Assembly (NCBI GenBank): GCA_029882015.1
Contig: JAOULM010000001.1
Location: 1-33,991, forward strand
Reading direction: 5' to 3'
Source: Candidatus Nomurabacteria bacterium
GTDB taxonomy: Bacteria > Patescibacteriota > Minisyncoccia > Phycocordibacterales > UBA1006
DNA length: 33,991 nucleotides
Shown: one piece after another, positions 1-30,743 of the stretch
Layout: the number at the start of each line of letters is the position of its first letter
Position numbering within the stretch: position 1 is the first letter of the stretch
The notes under the pieces: generated by a model
Told to the model about the DNA's origin: nothing
The model's input: only the letters and a program-made list of their open reading frames with translations
The model's database searches: none
Position numbers and translations under genes: made by a program

Positions 1-984
1 TATAAAACTGGGGTTGCTGATTATATGATTGCGGAATACCGATCGGGACGAACCCCCAACCCAGACGTCATGTGTAATCGCGAAGTAAAATTTGGAGGGT
101 TTTTGGATTGGGCGCTGGAACGTGGAGCAGATTTTGTTGCGACAGGGCATTATGCGCAAGTCACCACTTCCTCCTCCCCTGATGCAGGGGAGGTGCCGAG
201 GCACGAGGCGGAGGGGTATCAAAAAACCAATACCCCCCAGCCCTTCGGGCTGCCCCCCTACATAGGGGGGCAGGCGCGGTTTCAGCTCTTGCGTGGAATT
301 GACCCAGGCAAAGACCAATCATATTTTTTGTGGACCTTGACCCAGGATCAGTTGAAACATATTTTGTTTCCAGTCGGACATCTAATAAAAGACGAAACAC
401 GGAAACTTGCCGAGAAATACGAACTACCAACGGCCACAAAAAAAGATTCCCAAGGGGTTTGTTTTATTGGTGAAATAGATATGAAGGAATTTCTGGGGCA
501 TTATATTAACCACCAACCAGGGGATGTATTGAATACTGACGGAAAGATTATTGGACATCATGATGGAGCATTGTTTTTTACATTGGGTGAACGTCATGGA
601 TTTACAATCCTATCCAAAGGAACAGACGAGAGTCGGTATTATGTGGTGGATAAAGATATCAAGAAAAATACTATTACCGTCTCTGAAAATATTGATAATC
701 AAAAAGAAAATTATGGAAAAGGGCAACAAATAACCATAACCAATATAAACATGATTTCCGAGCCACTTCGTCCTGGGCAATCATACGATGCACAGATTCG
801 TTACCATGGTGAAATCAAGAAAATGACACTCAGCGGAATCAAGGGTGATACCGCAAGTGTGGTTCTGGCTGGTCACGACGCAACGATTGCCCCTGGGCAA
901 TCGTTGGTTATCTACCTGCCTGGCGAACAGTCGGGTAATGGTGATATTTGTTTGGGTGGTGGAGTGATCGATTCTGTCGCCTAG
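1..984 (+). CDS. mnmA: tRNA-specific 2-thiouridylase MnmA, 5'-truncated by window edge; carries an in-frame repeat insertion (see repeat 169-275)
   Basis: Frame 1 is open from nt 1. Motifs GRTPNPDVMCN, FVATGHYA, LLRGIDPGKDQSYFLW and DSQGVCFIGE are typical of MnmA. Stop TAG at 982-984. Confidence 0.9.
   Translation, partial: YKTGVADYMIAEYRSGRTPNPDVMCNREVKFGGFLDWALERGADFVATGHYAQVTTSSSPDAGEVPRHEAEGYQKTNTPQPFGLPPYIGGQARFQLLRGIDPGKDQSYFLWTLTQDQLKHILFPVGHLIKDETRKLAEKYELPTATKKDSQGVCFIGEIDMKEFLGHYINHQPGDVLNTDGKIIGHHDGALFFTLGERHGFTILSKGTDESRYYVVDKDIKKNTITVSENIDNQKENYGKGQQITITNINMISEPLRPGQSYDAQIRYHGEIKKMTLSGIKGDTASVVLAGHDATIAPGQSLVIYLPGEQSGNGDICLGGGVIDSVA
169..275 (+). repeat. GC-rich palindromic repeat pair (forward unit 169-219, inverted unit 231-275) inside the mnmA reading frame
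   Basis: tcctcctcccctgatgcaggggaggtgccgaggcacgaggcggaggggtat closely matches 10451-10500, 14890-14935 and 30603-30647. The second half is an inverted, diverged copy. Confidence 0.85.
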
Positions 985-1041
985 GGTGTTGTGCCTGGCG
1001 GGTTTTTGTCGTACGATAGAGATAAACAAAAAAGAAAAGTC

Positions 1042-1332
1042 ATGGCTCATTCAAATATAATTTCTATTTTAGAATATCATTTTGCTTTACGACCTGAAAA
1101 GAAAAAAATTTCATCGATGTATTGTATTCTAACTGACAAGTTTGGGGCAGTGTCACATTGGCACAAGATTGCGGGCAAGTGGACGTTTGCTGGAATACAA
1201 AACATTCAAAAATATGTATCAGTAGTTTGGGAGACTGATAGAGGGGGTAGCTTAAAGCTTGTTGGTTCACAGGATTTAGTTTTACCTGAAACAGTAAAAC
1301 GTTTTATAAAGCGGTTGAATATCTTCAAATAA
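1042..1332 (+). CDS. hypothetical small protein (97 aa from ATG 1042; ORF track starts at GTG 991)
   Basis: Open frame ends 8 nt before a strong rho-independent terminator (1341-1370). No recognisable motif. Confidence 0.35.
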   Translation: MAHSNIISILEYHFALRPEKKKISSMYCILTDKFGAVSHWHKIAGKWTFAGIQNIQKYVSVVWETDRGGSLKLVGSQDLVLPETVKRFIKRLNIFK

Positions 1333-1340
1333 AAAACAAG

Positions 1341-1370
1341 CCAGCACTATAACGTGCTGGTTTTTTCTTT
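1341..1370 (+). terminator. rho-independent terminator after orf 1042-1332
   Basis: CCAGCAC-tataac-GTGCTGG followed by TTTTTTCTTT. Confidence 0.75.
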
Positions 1371-1398
1371 TGCCAAAAATCGGCTGGGCAGGTATACT
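1370..1398 (+). promoter_or_regulatory. sigma-70-like promoter of alaS (TTGCCA-17-TATACT); ATG 7 nt after the -10
   Basis: Hexamers at 1370-1375 and 1393-1398. Confidence 0.55.
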
Positions 1399-1405
1399 GG
1401 TGGGC

Positions 1406-3058
1406 ATGAAATCAAACGACATCCGCGAGAAATTTTTGACCTTTATGGAATCCAAGGGGCACACTCGTGCGCCCAGCTCATCATTGATTCCGACTGATCC
1501 ATCGGTTTTGTTTACCACTGCAGGAATGCAGCAGTTTAAGCCATATTATATGGGGGAAAAATCTCCATACGGGGATATGGCAACCAGCGTACAAAAATGT
1601 ATGCGTACTAGCGATATCGACGAGATAGGTGACGCCACCCATTTGACATTTTTCGAGATGTTGGGAAATTTTGCTTTTAATAATGCGGTGTCAAAACGGC
1701 AGGCTATAGAATGGGGGCATGAATTTATCACCAGCGAAATGAAATTGAAAATAGATTACATTACTATTTTTGGAGGAGATGATATAACTGCTCGTGATAG
1801 CGAATCCGAAGACATCTGGAAATCAATCGATGCAAGTCTAGATATCCGCCCCGAAGGGCGCGATGATGTATTCTGGGGGCCAACTGGTGACGAGGGTCCA
1901 TGTGGTCCAACAACCGAAATTTACATTGACGGAGTAGAGATTTGGAATATTGTTTTCAATGAATATTATTGTGACAAAGAAAAAAATTACAAAAAATTAG
2001 AAAATTTTGGTATTGATACTGGGATGGGATTGGAGCGGTTAGCTGTTGCTGTCCAAGGGGTAAATAATGTTTTTGAAACAGATTTGTTTAACAATGAATT
2101 AGACAAAGAAGATAGAATTGTTGCCGACCATGTTCGTTCCGCTGTATTTTTGGCGATTGACGGCGTGCACCCATCTAATACTGGGCAGGGATACATATTG
2201 CGACGCCTCATTCGCAGGGCTGTATTTTATTCTCAAAAAAATGACACACTAATAAAAGATAACATTGATTTTGTCTGGAATAAATTTTCTGATGTTTATG
2301 AAAAAGACTTTGCCGGAGATTATGAAACGGTCGTCGAGGTAATAGAAAAAGAAAAGAAAAACTTTGAATCTACTTTGGATCGCGCCGTCAGAGAGTTCGA
2401 AAAAAGAAGTGCTTCTGATCTTAGTGGAAAAGATGTATTTGAATTGTTCACCACATATGGAATGCCTTTTGAAATGACGCGGGAACTGGCCCACGGAAAA
2501 GGACTCGAGGCAGATGTCGACGGGGCTTATTCAGAATTCGAACAACACAAAGAATTATCAAAAACAGCTAGCGCGGGGAAATTCAAGGGGGGTATGTCTG
2601 ATGCTGGTGACCCACAGGTTACCAAATTACACACCGCACACCATCTATTGCTGGCTGCACTGCAGCAGGTTCTGGGACAGGACGTTAAACAACGAGGGAG
2701 CAACATCACATCTGAACGGTTACGTATTGATTTTAATTTTGACCGCAAAATGACCGACGATGAAAAACAGCAGGTCAATGATTTGGTGAATGGATGGATT
2801 GCTGAGGGACTACCCGTCATTAAAAAAACTATGCCAAAAGACGAAGCCGAGGCGTTGGGAGCCGAAATGGAATTTGGGGTGAAATATCCCGACACTGTGG
2901 ATGTCTATTTTATAGAAAATAAAAATGGAGAAATAATTTCCAAGGAATTCTGTGGTGGTCCGCATATTACGAACACCAGCGAGCTGGGAACATTCAGAAT
3001 CAAAAAAGAAGAATCCAGTTCGGCTGGAGTACGACGAATCAAGGCTGTTCTTGAATAA
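1406..3058 (+). CDS. alaS: alanyl-tRNA synthetase, minimised form (550 aa, no C-Ala domain)
   Basis: N-terminus MKSNDIREKFLxFxESKGH, FTTAGMQQFKPYY, GNFAF. Editing-site motifs HTAHHLL and CGGPHI. ATG 1406 preferred over 1370 because a TTGCCA-17-TATACT promoter lies at 1370-1398. Confidence 0.95.
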   Translation: MKSNDIREKFLTFMESKGHTRAPSSSLIPTDPSVLFTTAGMQQFKPYYMGEKSPYGDMATSVQKCMRTSDIDEIGDATHLTFFEMLGNFAFNNAVSKRQAIEWGHEFITSEMKLKIDYITIFGGDDITARDSESEDIWKSIDASLDIRPEGRDDVFWGPTGDEGPCGPTTEIYIDGVEIWNIVFNEYYCDKEKNYKKLENFGIDTGMGLERLAVAVQGVNNVFETDLFNNELDKEDRIVADHVRSAVFLAIDGVHPSNTGQGYILRRLIRRAVFYSQKNDTLIKDNIDFVWNKFSDVYEKDFAGDYETVVEVIEKEKKNFESTLDRAVREFEKRSASDLSGKDVFELFTTYGMPFEMTRELAHGKGLEADVDGAYSEFEQHKELSKTASAGKFKGGMSDAGDPQVTKLHTAHHLLLAALQQVLGQDVKQRGSNITSERLRIDFNFDRKMTDDEKQQVNDLVNGWIAEGLPVIKKTMPKDEAEALGAEMEFGVKYPDTVDVYFIENKNGEIISKEFCGGPHITNTSELGTFRIKKEESSSAGVRRIKAVLE

Positions 3059-10450: not shown

Positions 10451-10780
10451 TCCTCCTCCCCTATGTAGGGGAGGTGCCGAGGAACGAGGCGGAGGGGTAT
10501 CAGACATAACCACCCAAACCCCCGTCTTCCCGGGCTCCGACCCGGGATCCAGAAACATCCCTACCAACCCTCAAGTGTCATCCCCGCGCAGACGGGGATC
10601 TTGTTTTAATTCTTTTCTTTTTTCTTGGCAAAAAAGAAACAAAAACCCAAGGCCTGTACCGAACTCTCTCAGAATTATCTAAAACTACATTCGTTATTTT
10701 TCAGGGGGCACTACGTTAGCCTGCTGAAAAATACCTGCGGACACTCATTCCATTTTGAAATTCTGGTTCGTTCGATAGGG
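10451..10780 (+). repeat. mosaic structured intergenic repeat, copy A (modules H1, H2, H3, E)
   Basis: H1 is 10451-10500. H2 (10522-10553) is identical to 14959-14990. H3 (10611-10641) is identical to 14992-15022. E (10647-10780) aligns with 15108-15242. An extra hairpin ATCCCCG/CGGGGAT lies at 10580-10599. Confidence 0.85.
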
Positions 10781-10811
10781 GTCGAATCCTCGCGCTAAAT
10801 TTTGGAATATT

Positions 10812-12864: not shown

Positions 12865-12940
12865 TGTCATCCTGAATTTATTTCAGGATCTCATAGACCA
12901 AAAATACAAACTTAGATTCTGAAATAAATTCAGAATGACA
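12865..12940. promoter_or_regulatory. inverted pair of 29-nt palindromic elements in the grpE-dnaK spacer
   Basis: TGTCATCCTGAATTTATTTCAGGATCTCA (12865-12893) versus the reverse complement of 12912-12940, TGTCATTCTGAATTTATTTCAGAATCTAA. 26/29 identical. The two stem differences are compensatory (C:G to T:A). Confidence 0.6.
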
Positions 12941-14889: not shown

Positions 14890-15242
14890 TCCTCCTACCC
14901 TATGCAGGGGAGGTGCCCGTAGGGCGGAGGGGTATTAAACATAAAATACCAAACCTATCCGTCTTCCCGGGCTCCGACCCGGGATCCAGAATCTTTTCTT
15001 TTTTCTTGGCAAAAAAGAAACACCCGATGAAATATATTCGCTACCGCTCATTATTTCCCTGGATAAAAACAATATAGTCACTATGTTCCTTATTGTTAGT
15101 TAAAAATCCAAGGCCTGTATCTCGCTCTCTCAGAATTTCTAAAACTCTCGTTCACTATTTTTCAAGGGGCACTCCGTATAGCCTTTTGAAAAATTAAAAA
15201 CGTTCACTTTCGTTTTGAAATTCTGGTTCGCTCGATAAGGGC
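14890..15242 (+). repeat. mosaic structured intergenic repeat, copy B (modules H1, H2, H3, insert, E)
   Basis: Same module order as copy A. It has an ~85-nt unique AT-rich insert (15023-15107) between H3 and E. Confidence 0.85.
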
Positions 15243-15287
15243 CAAAGGACGTGTTAGACTATGGAATCTAAATAGCACCACCCCCGA

Positions 15288-15308
15288 CCCCTCCTCAAAG
15301 AGGAGGGG
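15288..15308 (+). repeat. perfect 9-bp hairpin CCCCTCCTC-aaa-GAGGAGGGG upstream of dnaJ (related to the H1 stem motif)
   Basis: Read directly from the sequence. The 3' arm is SD-like but ends 17 nt before the ATG at 15326. Confidence 0.7.
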
Positions 15309-15325
15309 AGGGACACTTGAAACTT

Positions 15326-22883: not shown

Positions 22884-22923
22884 GCTAGGTTTTATTGGTT
22901 TTTAAAAAACCAATAAAACCTAG
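22884..22923. promoter_or_regulatory. perfect 40-bp palindrome (20+20, no spacer) immediately upstream of the dnaB -10 element
   Basis: gctaggttttattggttttt / aaaaaccaataaaacctagc, read directly from the sequence. Confidence 0.7.
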
Positions 22924-22958
22924 CTGGGGATTGTGTGGATAGAGACTTTTTAAAAGAC

Positions 22959-26407: not shown

Positions 26408-26422
26408 AATATTAAAATTAAA

Positions 26423-26449
26423 ACGGACACAATTTGTGTCCGTTTTTTT
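26423..26449 (+). terminator. terminator after the ABC exporter gene
   Basis: ACGGACACA-att-TGTGTCCGT followed by T7. Confidence 0.8.
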
Positions 26450-26450
26450 A

Positions 26451-26479
26451 TTGCACAAATTTGGTTATTCTGGCATAAT
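26451..26479 (+). promoter_or_regulatory. promoter of the T-box leader (TTGCAC-17-TGgCATAAT)
   Basis: Hexamers at 26451-26456 and 26474-26479. Confidence 0.55.
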
Positions 26480-26485
26480 TGGGGT

Positions 26486-26640
26486 ATTCACTGATGAGCC
26501 TGGATGATAACAGGCGAGGTGTCAATTTTATATAAAGCGCCTTTTGCTACGTGTCGAGCGGCAAGGGGAATCGAGGTGGCACCGCGGATTTATATTCGTC
26601 CTCATAAATTATTCAGTTAGTTTGTGGGGAATTTTTTTAC
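26486..26640 (+). promoter_or_regulatory. T-box riboswitch leader (compact), apparent Asp specifier, controlling hydrolase-aspS
   Basis: Antiterminator: GAGG (26573-26576), 7-nt bulge UGGCACC (26577-26583, canonical UGGNACC), helix GCGGAU/AUUCGU, then CCUC (26600-26603). Competing terminator CCUCAUAAA/UUUGUGGGG plus U7 (26600-26638). 5' hairpin has a K-turn-like UGAUGA/CGAG base and the loop GAUGAUAA. Confidence 0.8.
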
Positions 26641-27223: not shown

Positions 27224-28642
27224 ATGCGAACACTAATAAAAAACTTAAATACACAAAAGGGAGAGACCGTAACAATAAACGGTTGGGTTCACGTTGCGCG
27301 GGATCAGGGGAAAATGGCTTTCTTTGATTTTCGTGACATGACCGGAACCGTACAGGGTGTCGTATTCGGAAAACCAGAGGTTTTGGAAATTGCCAAAACC
27401 TTGCGTCCAGAATGGGTTGTTGCCGTAACTGGTATTGTGAACGAACGACCCGAAAAAATGGTCAAAGCTGGCGTATTAAACGGCGACATCGAATTGGAAA
27501 TTACAGAAATTACAGTATTGAACACAGCGACGACGCCAGCATTTGAATTGACCGAAAGCACTATAGGAATCAACGAACGTGTGCGATTGGAAAATCGCTA
27601 TGTTGATTTGCGAACTGATCGCTTGCAGAAAAACCTGCGCATGCGTCACGCCGTGGCGAAACTGACTCGGGATATTTTGGATGACGAGGGATTCACAGAA
27701 ATCGAGACTCCGTTGTTTACGAAATCAACTCCCGAGGGGGCTCGCGATTATGTCGTGCCTGCGCGTCTGTACCCAGGACAGTTTTACGCACTGCCACAGT
27801 CACCTCAGCAGTATAAACAGCTATTGATGGCTGGGGGCATCGAGCGGTATTTTCAGTTTGCAAAATGTATGCGCGACGAGGATACCCGTGGTGACCGTCA
27901 ACCAGAATTTACACAGATGGACATGGAGATGTCATTCGCGACCGAAGACGAAATCATGGCAATCAACGAAAAGGTCTTGATAGCTATTGTTGAAAAACTA
28001 TATCCAGAAAAACGAATCCAAACAGTTCCATTCCCACGCATTACGTATGCCGAGGCTATGGAAAAACATGGTAGCGATCGACCTGATCTACGTGAAGACA
28101 AAACCGACGACAATCTATTGGCGTTTGCGTGGGTGGTGGACTGGCCATTTTTCGAAAAAACTGCGGACAGCGATGATCCACAGGCAACAGGAGAATGGAC
28201 GTTTACGCATAACCCATTTTCATTGTCGAAACCAGAACATATCGAGAACTTGAAAAACAAAACAAACATCGGTGACATCATGGCGTCACAGTACGACATT
28301 ACATTGAACGGACTGGAAATCGGTGGGGGATCAATCCGAGCCCATGATCCAGAAATCTTGAAATCTATTTTGCAGATTTTGGGACACAGCGATGAAAAAA
28401 TTGAAAAGAATTTCGGTCACATGTTGCGCGCATTGGGATCAGGAACACCACCACACGGGGGAATCGCGTGGGGGTTTGACCGATTGATGATGATCCTGCA
28501 AAACGAACCAAACATCCGCGAGGTAATCGCATTTCCAAAAACCGGCGAAGGTCGCGATCTGATGATGGATTCACCGTCACCAATTTCAGACCAGCAGTTG
28601 GGGGAATTGAATATTAAATTAGATTTACCAGTAGAAGAGTAG
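27224..28642 (+). CDS. aspS: aspartyl-tRNA synthetase, bacterial-type sequence but lacking the GAD insertion domain (472 aa)
   Basis: OB-fold N-terminus, FYALPQSPQQYKQLLM, PEFTQMDMEMSF, FTHNPF, GGGSIR, PPHGGIAWGFDRL. Confidence 0.95.
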   Translation: MRTLIKNLNTQKGETVTINGWVHVARDQGKMAFFDFRDMTGTVQGVVFGKPEVLEIAKTLRPEWVVAVTGIVNERPEKMVKAGVLNGDIELEITEITVLNTATTPAFELTESTIGINERVRLENRYVDLRTDRLQKNLRMRHAVAKLTRDILDDEGFTEIETPLFTKSTPEGARDYVVPARLYPGQFYALPQSPQQYKQLLMAGGIERYFQFAKCMRDEDTRGDRQPEFTQMDMEMSFATEDEIMAINEKVLIAIVEKLYPEKRIQTVPFPRITYAEAMEKHGSDRPDLREDKTDDNLLAFAWVVDWPFFEKTADSDDPQATGEWTFTHNPFSLSKPEHIENLKNKTNIGDIMASQYDITLNGLEIGGGSIRAHDPEILKSILQILGHSDEKIEKNFGHMLRALGSGTPPHGGIAWGFDRLMMILQNEPNIREVIAFPKTGEGRDLMMDSPSPISDQQLGELNIKLDLPVEE

Positions 28643-28648
28643 AAAAAA

Positions 28649-28707
28649 ATACCCCTCAGTCTCGCTCGTACCTCGTTCGACAGCTCCCCTACATAGGGGA
28701 GGAGGGA
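28649..28707 (-). repeat. GC-rich palindromic repeat unit, long variant, inverted orientation, 7 nt after the aspS stop
   Basis: atacccctcagtctcgctcgtacctcgttcgacagctcccctacataggggaggaggga is near-identical to 30672-30728. Confidence 0.85.
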
Positions 28708-30582: not shown

Positions 30583-30602
30583 TAGAATAAAGCCATCATA
30601 GC

Positions 30603-30728
30603 CCTCCTCCCCTATGTAGGGGAGGTGCCCGTAGGGCGGAGGGGTATCAATATATAAACACCTTAAAAACAATACCCCTCAGTCTCACTCGTACCTCGTT
30701 CGACAGCTCCCCTACATAGGGGAGCAGG
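30603..30728. repeat. GC-rich palindromic repeat pair (forward unit 30603-30647, inverted long unit 30672-30728) filling the scpA-scpB spacer
   Basis: The forward unit is near-identical to 14890-14935. The inverted unit is near-identical to 28649-28707. The architecture matches the pair inside mnmA. Confidence 0.85.
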
Positions 30729-30743
30729 ACATTTTTAATTTTT

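Follow-up and report, generated by a model that had tools for sequence, protein, structure and literature searches.

A palindromic dyad lies in frame inside mnmA

The DNA analysed here, a complete contig of 33,991 nt (hereafter the window) from a metagenome-assembled genome (MAG) labelled Candidatus Nomurabacteria bacterium (locus tag prefix OEX08_), begins with a truncated mnmA gene for tRNA 2-thiouridine synthase, and this gene contains an in-frame insert composed of two GC-rich palindromic units in tail-to-tail arrangement. The window encodes the C-terminal 327 residues of MnmA, including the Pfam tRNA_Me_trans HUP, PRC-barrel and C-terminal β-barrel domains, and in phmmer searches the product matched MnmA structures of the PDB at E 1e-66; its NCBI product name is only 'hypothetical protein, partial'. 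An earlier note on this DNA had described the segment as a repeat pair translated within an essential gene without a stop codon or frameshift. Translation and frame were found as described there, and the MnmA motifs around the insert are all intact. The gene is essential in Bacillus subtilis and dispensable in Escherichia coli, and its essentiality in this organism of the candidate phyla radiation (CPR) was an assumption of the earlier note.

In codon terms the insert occupies positions 169–273, corresponding to S57–Q91 of the partial protein and to S132–Q166 of the full-length protein P0121 described below, with boundaries uncertain by 1–2 nt. It encodes the peptide SSSPDAGEVPRHEAEGYQKTNTPQPFGLPPYIGGQ, from which HEAEGYQK and TNTPQPFGLPPYIGGQAR are predicted as tryptic peptides. 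When the 35 codons are subtracted, the loop of MnmA consists of AQVTT joined directly to ARFQLLRG and has the same length as in insert-free homologs. With a GC content of up to 0.78 the insert is the strongest GC island of the window, and its folding z-score is -5.2 as single-stranded DNA and -4.6 as RNA, the RNA fold having an energy of -64 kcal/mol.

Comparison with other parts of the window indicates where the two halves of the dyad, units A and B, have their relatives. Unit A (169–221) is 94% identical over 53 nt to the intergenic segment 10451–10502 (E 1e-16 within the window), and unit B is 82–85% complementary to 30603–30647, in agreement with the earlier description of a near-copy of intergenic repeats followed by an inverted, diverged copy. 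The order of a unit followed by an inverted unit is that of the dyad between scpA and scpB (30602–30729), again as had been proposed. A 20-nt hairpin core was found 8 times, at 5 sites of the window, when at most 3 mismatches were permitted; 100 shuffles gave an expectation of 0.00. The canonical loop of the first hairpin would be read as CCT ATG TAG in the mnmA frame, whereas unit A has CCT GAT GCA and no stop. The same TGATGCA variant is present in an intergenic position at L017 3504–3553, and because the identical variant sits there, the loop of unit A belongs to a pre-existing subfamily and does not reflect repair after insertion. Three of the six frames of the mnmA dyad are free of stops; the scpA-scpB dyad has stop codons in all six.

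The position of the insert in the protein was analysed by alignment and by modelling. Between GHYA and LLRG the MnmA of the window has 43 residues versus about 11 in solved MnmA structures, so that the segment is indeed longer, as the earlier note had held in comparison with the E. coli and B. subtilis proteins. In phmmer alignments MnmA residues 5–56 and 94–325 are colinear with MnmA from B. subtilis or Streptococcus pneumoniae, and only 5 residues of the PDB chain lie opposite query residues 57–93 (37 residues). An AlphaFold2 model calculated with 62 homologs had a mean predicted local distance difference test score (pLDDT) of 85.3 and a predicted template modelling (TM) score of 0.82, and it matched MnmA crystal structures with TM scores of 0.74–0.76 (0.74 for 2hma/2der). 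Residues 58–92 of the model are coil with block-mean pLDDT values of 43–52 and are flanked by strands formed by residues 51–57 and 93–98. The insert is therefore predicted to be a disordered excursion of 35 residues at the tip of the β-hairpin that follows the ATGHY strand.

Anatomy and distribution of the repeat family

The anatomy of the family was obtained from an alignment of 23 distinct units, and a covariance model (R1) was built on the family. Units are 46–58 nt long and consist of a 5' CCT, hairpin 1, a variable hairpin 2, and the tail GAGGGGTAT. Hairpin 1 has 7–9 base pairs formed by CCTCCCC and GGGGAGG around the loop TATGTA. At the junction of this loop with the 3' arm GTAG is found in most of the 23 units, and CGCT, TGCA or ATAG elsewhere. 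Hairpin 2 has an outer stem GCC/GGC, in other units GTC/GAC or GGC/GCC, and its interior is either short (frequently GCCC-GNA-GGGC) or 15–25 nt long; GNA-type triloops are typical of stable DNA mini-hairpins. Over the 23 units 95.3% of the cells in hairpins 1 and 2 are paired and 4 pairs are altered on both sides, for example at the base of hairpin 1 (C:G replaced by G:C) and within hairpin 2 (C:G replaced by T:A or G:C). These pairing and covariation values were matched by 0 of 500 shuffles, and in slid registers the pairing falls to 55–70%. Three subtypes are distinguished by their 5' arms (type 1, CCTCCCC; type 2, GCTCCCC; type 3, GCCCCCC). Unit B differs from type 1 by compensatory changes and is identical at 44 of 46 positions to L013 4528–4573, a unit inside the tsaE gene of another contig. 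Units occur singly or as tail-to-tail dyads, mostly of differing subtypes, with 10–25 AT-rich bases between them. In predicted folds the two tails of a dyad pair across the spacer to form a central stem with hairpins at either side, and the scpA-scpB dyad gave a folding z-score of -6.3.

The R1 model detected 7 full units in the window, starting at 169, 230 (minus strand), 10451, 14890, 28649 (minus strand), 30602, and 30672 (minus strand). The five units outside mnmA are all intergenic and lie 6–58 nt after stop codons, and just downstream of stop codons is the usual location of the units. Copy counts cover the 34-kb window and public contigs, the latter by exact-pattern scans. Units were found on 13 other public contigs, of which one (L001) derives from another MAG and twelve (L008–L019) are JGI metagenome contigs, most of them from one sample; a scan of species-representative genomes gave L001 as its only match. 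The units on other contigs occupy non-syntenic sites, and dyads are also present on L008, L011, L012, L013, L015, and L018. A scan of viral contigs for the unit yielded no matches and hence no evidence for a phage vehicle. Rfam had no match at any unit, neither at the gathering threshold nor at E up to 1. Inspection of the sequence 5' of about 25 units revealed neither a target motif nor a pattern of target-site duplication, and no direct repeats border the mnmA dyad (..CACCACT / CGCGGTT..) or the scpA-scpB dyad (..CATAGC / ACATTT..).

Table 1. Positions of mnmA, of repeat units and dyads, and of inserts in MnmA homologs (positions without a contig name refer to the window)
Feature	Position	Strand	Description
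mnmA (tRNA 2-thiouridine synthase)	1–984	+	frame 1; 5' end cut off by contig end; stop codon 982–984
In-frame palindromic dyad insert	170–274	+	105 nt, exactly 35 codons; core CCT...AGG; supported by GC content, folding, and loop length of homologs
Unit A, type 1 (CCTCCCC/GGGGAGG hairpin)	169–219	+	loop variant TGATGCA; long form of hairpin 2; 71 bits with R1, to whose seed alignment it belonged
A-rich spacer CAAAAAACCA	220–229	+	between the two tails; loop of central tail-tail stem in predicted folds
Unit B, type 3 (GCCCCCC/GGGGGGC hairpin)	230–275	-	short hairpin 2 GCCC-GAA-GGGC; 58.8 bits with R1
Single intergenic unit	10451–10500	+	58 nt past rpsI stop, between convergent genes
Single intergenic unit	14890–14935	+	8 nt past dnaK stop
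Single intergenic unit	28649–28706	-	6 nt past stop of class-II tRNA synthetase gene (aspS-like)
Intergenic scpA-scpB dyad	30602–30729		type 1 at 30602–30647 (+), type 2 at 30672–30729 (-); 19 nt past scpA stop
Dyad inside tsaE	L013 4528–4649		in frame; Pfam TsaE on both sides; 49 query residues versus 7 in PDB chain
Dyad inside uvrC	L015 5806–5936		in frame; between GIY and YIG strands; about 44 extra residues
Insert in P0093	L020 2206–2293		two hairpins in dyad arrangement
Insert in P0067	L022 731–830		dyad with perfect 24-nt palindrome; one unit 29.5 bits with R1, E 8e-8
Insert in P0074	L027 2096–2182		nested hairpins
Insert in P0073	L021 10379–10519		not visibly palindromic

Some further properties of the units were recorded. 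A role of the units as intrinsic terminators was rejected by eye, as the hairpins are not followed by a run of T. The tail (GGAGGGG) is the mirror image, in purines, of the 3' arm of hairpin 1 (GGGGAGG), for example at window positions 209–215 and 187–193, and in type 3 units the mirror arms co-vary (GGGGGGC / TGGGGGG), which is seen in two related units only. Formation of a triplex from this purine mirror was considered and set aside, the tail being accounted for by tail-tail pairing within dyads. Two R1 units, at L016 1377–1453 and L010 2913–2965, have an unrelated hairpin (CGCCCGGAYGARCC.TTCGGACGGG) nested between hairpins 1 and 2 and are cases of repeats inserted into repeats. Just upstream of the dnaJ start codon at 15317, the window has a GC-rich hairpin at 15275–15312 (CCCCTCCTC-AAA-GAGGAGGGG) whose match to R1 is weak (12.4 bits) and which could be related to the units in degenerate form.

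The insert is present in other assemblies

The 90% identity cluster of the partial MnmA includes the full-length protein P0121, which has 402 residues, carries the identical insert and retains the PP-loop SGGVDS as well as the NPDVMCN and DSQGVCF motifs. Three other ENA assemblies have contigs with the P0121 gene (L024–L026), whose DNA is 100% identical to window positions 1–1400. Because three other assemblies hold the insert with identical DNA, it is not an assembly artefact, and the insert-bearing mnmA is not a pseudogene either. The identity across the four assemblies probably reflects a single population. A contig of a further assembly (L002) reproduces the intergenic units exactly, including the scpA-scpB dyad. 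Contigs L003 and L004, from two further assemblies of this organism, stop at the unit 28649–28706, at about window positions 28640–28700; short-read assembly of its genome is fragmented by the repeat family.

Dyads of the same family inside tsaE and uvrC

Every unit found was checked for a long open frame spanning it. Of 8 dyads sampled, 3 lie inside genes, each of them in frame; besides the one in mnmA they are located in tsaE (L013) and uvrC (L015), and both of these genes run on intact downstream of the dyad. As judged from the known folds of the two proteins, these sites would also be β-hairpin turns. Unit B of the tsaE dyad and unit B of the mnmA dyad encode the same peptide (NTPQPFGQPPYIGGQ versus NTPQPFGLPPYIGGQ), and the frame of unit B (..NTPQ..PYIGGQ) is common to the mnmA, tsaE, and uvrC dyads. 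Unit A is identical over about 47 nt between the tsaE and uvrC dyads and encodes the peptide SPQMRGGGDEGRRGI. The genic dyads are stop-free variants.

The same loop of MnmA is expanded repeatedly

The corresponding loop was surveyed in the 120 nearest MnmA homologs, all of which are Paceibacteria-like and show 50–58% BLASTP identity. The spacing between GHY and KDQ was 14–21 residues in 85 of these homologs and 24–63 residues in the remaining 35. A neighbor-joining tree calculated with the loop masked contains several close sister pairs that differ in the expansion (for example P0023/P0038, P0039/P0040, P0030/P0069, and P0001/P0002), and pairs of this kind are dispersed through the tree. From clade to clade the inserted sequences show no relationship, and some are AT-rich. 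The DNA of four expanded homologs was inspected, and in three of them (P0093, P0067, and P0074) the insert is a GC-rich hairpin composite; all four inserts, including that of P0073, are GC-richer (0.50–0.56) than their own contigs (0.32–0.43). Several of the inserts at this turn are GC-rich palindromes belonging to repeat families other than the present one. Several shorter expansions, such as TPQPPLKEGE, resemble translated palindromes when judged from the peptide. The closest relative, P0002 (58% identity in BLASTP and 68% in the alignment), has an unrelated, non-palindromic loop of 27 residues, and no unit is present on its 4-kb contig. From these comparisons the insert in the MnmA of the window appears to be lineage-specific. 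A second, small lineage-specific insertion was noticed in the same protein at window 916–936, where 7 residues (LPGEQSG) precede the conserved C-terminal CLGGG motif; they are found in none of 20 aligned homologs nor in MnmA sequences of the PDB, and show no likeness to the repeats.

Neighbouring repeats and other features of the window

Besides mnmA, the window contains alaS, a sigma factor gene, infA, rpsM/K/D, rpoA, rplQ, rplM, rpsI, grpE-dnaK-dnaJ, cysS, corA, rplU, recR, dnaB, two further tRNA synthetase genes, scpA/scpB, and mraY, and a scan for tRNA and tmRNA revealed no genes. The alaS gene (1370–3058) is short, its product having 562 residues according to the ORF (open reading frame) listing and 502 residues in other assemblies, with catalytic and tRNA_SAD domains only; a typical bacterial alanyl-tRNA synthetase has about 870 residues.

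Two further repeats accompany R1 units. A dispersed repeat of about 140 nt is present on the plus strand of the window at 10651–10790 and 15112–15250 and also at L016 3196–3342, L010 5423–5560 (minus strand), L008 3594–3744 (minus strand), and L013 4921–5064 (minus strand). On L016, on L008 and in the window its position is downstream of an R1 unit; the copies are 74–86% identical and their flanking genes differ between loci. RNAalifold analysis of the six copies gave a rod-like hairpin with 44 pairs, 10 of which show compensatory changes, and conserved G-U pairs favour the plus strand of the window. No ORF is present in the repeat, and Rfam gave no match to it at E values as high as 1; it may represent a small RNA family or a structured terminus of a mobile element. 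A hairpin repeat of 33 nt (CCGTCTTCCCGGGCTCCGACCCGGGATCCAGAA) is located at window 10522–10554 and 14959–14991 and at L016 3054–3085, L013 156–191, and L012 5986–6020. Its copies in the window do not differ from each other (100% identity) and are both found some 20 nt downstream of an R1 unit, resulting in a composite of about 350 nt in the order R1 unit, 33-nt hairpin, spacer, and 140-nt repeat.

Other inverted repeats were detected near chaperone and replication genes. The gap between grpE and dnaK contains a 27-nt inverted repeat at 12865–12891 and 12914–12940 (TGTCATCCTGAATTTATTTCAGGATCT), 93% complementary and with a gap of 22 nt, which presumably does not match the consensus of the CIRCE operator (controlling inverted repeat of chaperone expression), and which may serve in heat-shock control as an operator or else act as an attenuator. 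A similar hairpin, TGTCATCC...GGATCT, lies at about 10580–10607. At 22884–22924, immediately upstream of the dnaB start codon, there is a perfect 20-nt inverted repeat with a gap of 1 nt (GCTAGGTTTTATTGGTTTTT/AAAAACCAATAAAACCTAGC). Finally, positions 26409–26606 of the plus strand, upstream of a hydrolase gene and a class-II (Asp/Asn-type) tRNA synthetase gene, match the full T-box leader model below threshold (38 bits versus a gathering cutoff of 93, E 3e-5).

Origin of the insert

The segment inside mnmA is very probably a tail-to-tail dyad of a dispersed family of palindromes in this Nomurabacteria lineage, resembling repetitive extragenic palindromic (REP) elements, that was copied into the gene and tolerated there. 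The ortholog alignment, the structural model and the covariance model, which the earlier note had proposed as checks, came out in its favour: the closest relative lacks the segment and no homolog has it with conserved residues, the insert maps to a predicted coil at a hairpin tip, and units are found by R1 elsewhere in the window with in-frame genic copies in two other genes. One dyad of 105 nt would have been copied into the turn after the ATGHY strand. Its survival there may be due to a length divisible by three, to the use of a loop variant lacking a stop codon in frame, and to a site that tolerates a disordered excursion and leaves the catalytic motifs intact, and the peptide is most likely carried along with little or no effect on fitness. 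As to how the copy was made, our guess is single-strand, hairpin-directed transposition of the type proposed for REP sequences and REP-associated tyrosine transposases (RAYTs) or of the IS200/IS605 type (HUH/Y1 enzymes), which is favoured because target-site duplications are lacking and because hairpin structure, with its GNA-type triloops, is conserved rather than sequence.

Several results weigh against this reading of the locus. The 23 aligned units have no conserved unpaired terminal GTAG/CGTC tag. Pfam scans and precomputed Pfam matches revealed no RAYT or Y1 transposase in the window, and a phmmer search with E. coli RayT against 236 kb of fetched CPR sequence, which is of low sensitivity on such fragmentary data, gave a best E-value of 1.5. 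No insert-free allele was seen, and the available sequences include no near relative above 70% identity by which the insertion could be dated, and the expression and function of the insert-bearing protein are deduced only from its sequence and the predicted model.

It is conceivable, if unlikely, that the ancestral MnmA of Paceibacteria already possessed an old insert, which was kept similar to the current repeats by repeated gene conversion and was precisely lost in many lineages. Such a history would fit the expanded loop at the same position in 35 of the 120 nearest homologs and the GC-rich hairpin elements found there in P0093, P0067, and P0074, the last but one with a significant R1 match (Table 1). 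It would, however, require many precise losses, and it is at odds with expanded and unexpanded sister pairs scattered over the tree, with unrelated and in part AT-rich insert sequences, with the lack of a palindrome in P0002, and with the intergenic occurrence of the loop subfamily of unit A in another genome (L017).

Selection for a new function appears rather improbable as the reason why the insert was kept, whether the peptide formed a new surface of MnmA for tRNA or for a partner protein or whether the stable structure in the mRNA controlled translation or stability. In favour of such selection, four assemblies agree on the insert, which is fixed, its RNA fold is stable, and mnmA, tsaE, and uvrC share one frame of unit B. 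The peptide is, however, predicted to be disordered, the identity among assemblies probably stems from one population, and the sequences inserted into this loop are completely different from one lineage to the next. The shared frame is explained by survivorship, because it is the one in which the canonical loop is stop-free.

That mnmA is a decaying pseudogene, or that the junction is an assembly chimera across a repeat, has been largely refuted and is barely credible: the insert does begin just 169 nt from the contig end, other assemblies are broken by the repeats at 28649–28706 and the NCBI product name is uninformative, but both flanks of the insert are colinear mnmA in a single frame, the full ORF of 402 codons keeps the PP-loop SGGVDS together with DSQGVCF and NPDVMCN, and over 1400 nt the DNA of three independent assemblies shows 100% identity.

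Relation to known repeat families

Palindromic repeats in frame within genes have been known in Rickettsia since 2000, according to the account given in PMC10969869 (Ogata et al., 2000, 2002). Like these Rickettsia palindromic elements (RPEs), the repeats described here are dispersed between genes and lie in frame inside unrelated housekeeping genes, in a bacterial host with a small genome, and add a peptide where the protein fold permits it. RPE-1 is a single element of about 100–150 bp with a conserved peptide, whereas the element in mnmA combines, as a dyad, two short hairpin units that differ in subtype and also occur independently; as the hosts are Rickettsia in one case and Patescibacteria/CPR in the other, a sequence relationship is not expected and the likeness is one of behaviour. 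The comparison with RPEs made in the earlier note holds, in that an ORF tolerates a selfish palindromic repeat within it, and recurrent insertion in frame is characteristic of RPEs. In anatomy the family is nearer than to RPE-1 to REP dimers, bacterial interspersed mosaic elements (BIMEs) and REP doublets forming hairpins (REPINs), because the units are short hairpins of different subtypes in inverted pairs, located 3' of genes and lacking target-site duplications.

Intragenic REP singletons and dimers encoding 20–30 residues have been described in several phyla, notably in genes for excinuclease ABC (uvr), tRNA synthetase, and tRNA pseudouridine synthase, and in one case different REPs occupy about the same site of recB in two Xanthomonas species (Di Nocera et al., 2013, PMC3733652). 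The present family resembles REP/BIME/REPIN sequences (PMC3733652; Bertels and Rainey, 2011, PMC3116915) in its GC-rich imperfect palindromes with compensatory stem changes and several subtypes, in its single units and inverted dimers 10–25 nt apart, in its placement no more than about 60 nt past stop codons, where the neighbouring genes are convergent or co-directional, in the lack of target-site duplication, and in occasional in-frame dimers inside genes. It differs in that its unit is a composite of two hairpins and a tail, longer than the usual 20–40 nt, in the lack of a conserved terminal tag, and in that no RAYT was found in the sequence searched. In structure, position and dimer formation it is therefore like REP/BIME/REPIN sequences, and in the terminal tag it is not. 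With bacterial MITEs (miniature transposable elements with inverted repeats) that have in-frame intragenic copies, such as ERIC, the Coxiella QMITE and Correia/NEMIS (PMC10969869), it shares small size, a non-autonomous nature, inverted ends, and in-frame fusions. Unlike in MITEs, neither dyad of the window has a target-site duplication and no insertion sequence was seen in the sequence examined; unlike MITE terminal repeats, the halves of the dyad also occur alone. Because a target-site duplication is lacking, the element is not a MITE in the strict sense.

The earlier note knew of no description of such elements for CPR, and a full-text literature search likewise yielded no paper linking the terms REP, RPE, REPIN, or MITE with Patescibacteria/CPR. 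In-frame palindromic insertions are already known in Rickettsia and other bacteria, and for CPR they appear to be undescribed. The finding is less unusual than the earlier note held, because intragenic REP dimers are established outside Rickettsia.

Implications for CPR genomes and proteins

The reuse of the MnmA loop, together with the parallel insertions in tsaE and uvrC, is a more interesting lead than the mnmA case itself. We tentatively propose, as a possibility somewhat short of even chances, that REP-like palindromes are a recurrent source of lineage-specific loop insertions in housekeeping proteins of Paceibacteria and that the turn after ATGHY in MnmA is a landing pad for different families with many independent hits, in view of the 35 expanded loops among 120 homologs and of the dispersed sister pairs that differ in the expansion. 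If true, this would mean that the copying mechanism has a targeting preference or that the site is unusually permissive, and recurrent use of the loop could help to separate insertion-site targeting from tolerance. In practical terms, such inserts break assemblies, inflate the apparent divergence of proteins and may degrade automatic annotation, the MnmA of the window being labelled a hypothetical protein. CPR genomes rank with the smallest and most streamlined known, and the presence of an abundant selfish repeat family, also inside mnmA, tsaE, and uvrC, shows that streamlining leaves room for such elements. They may account for some of the lineage-specific insertions in CPR proteins, and if the MnmA turn is indeed a landing pad, they would provide a concrete mechanism by which the many protein insertions of these genomes that lack an explanation could have arisen.

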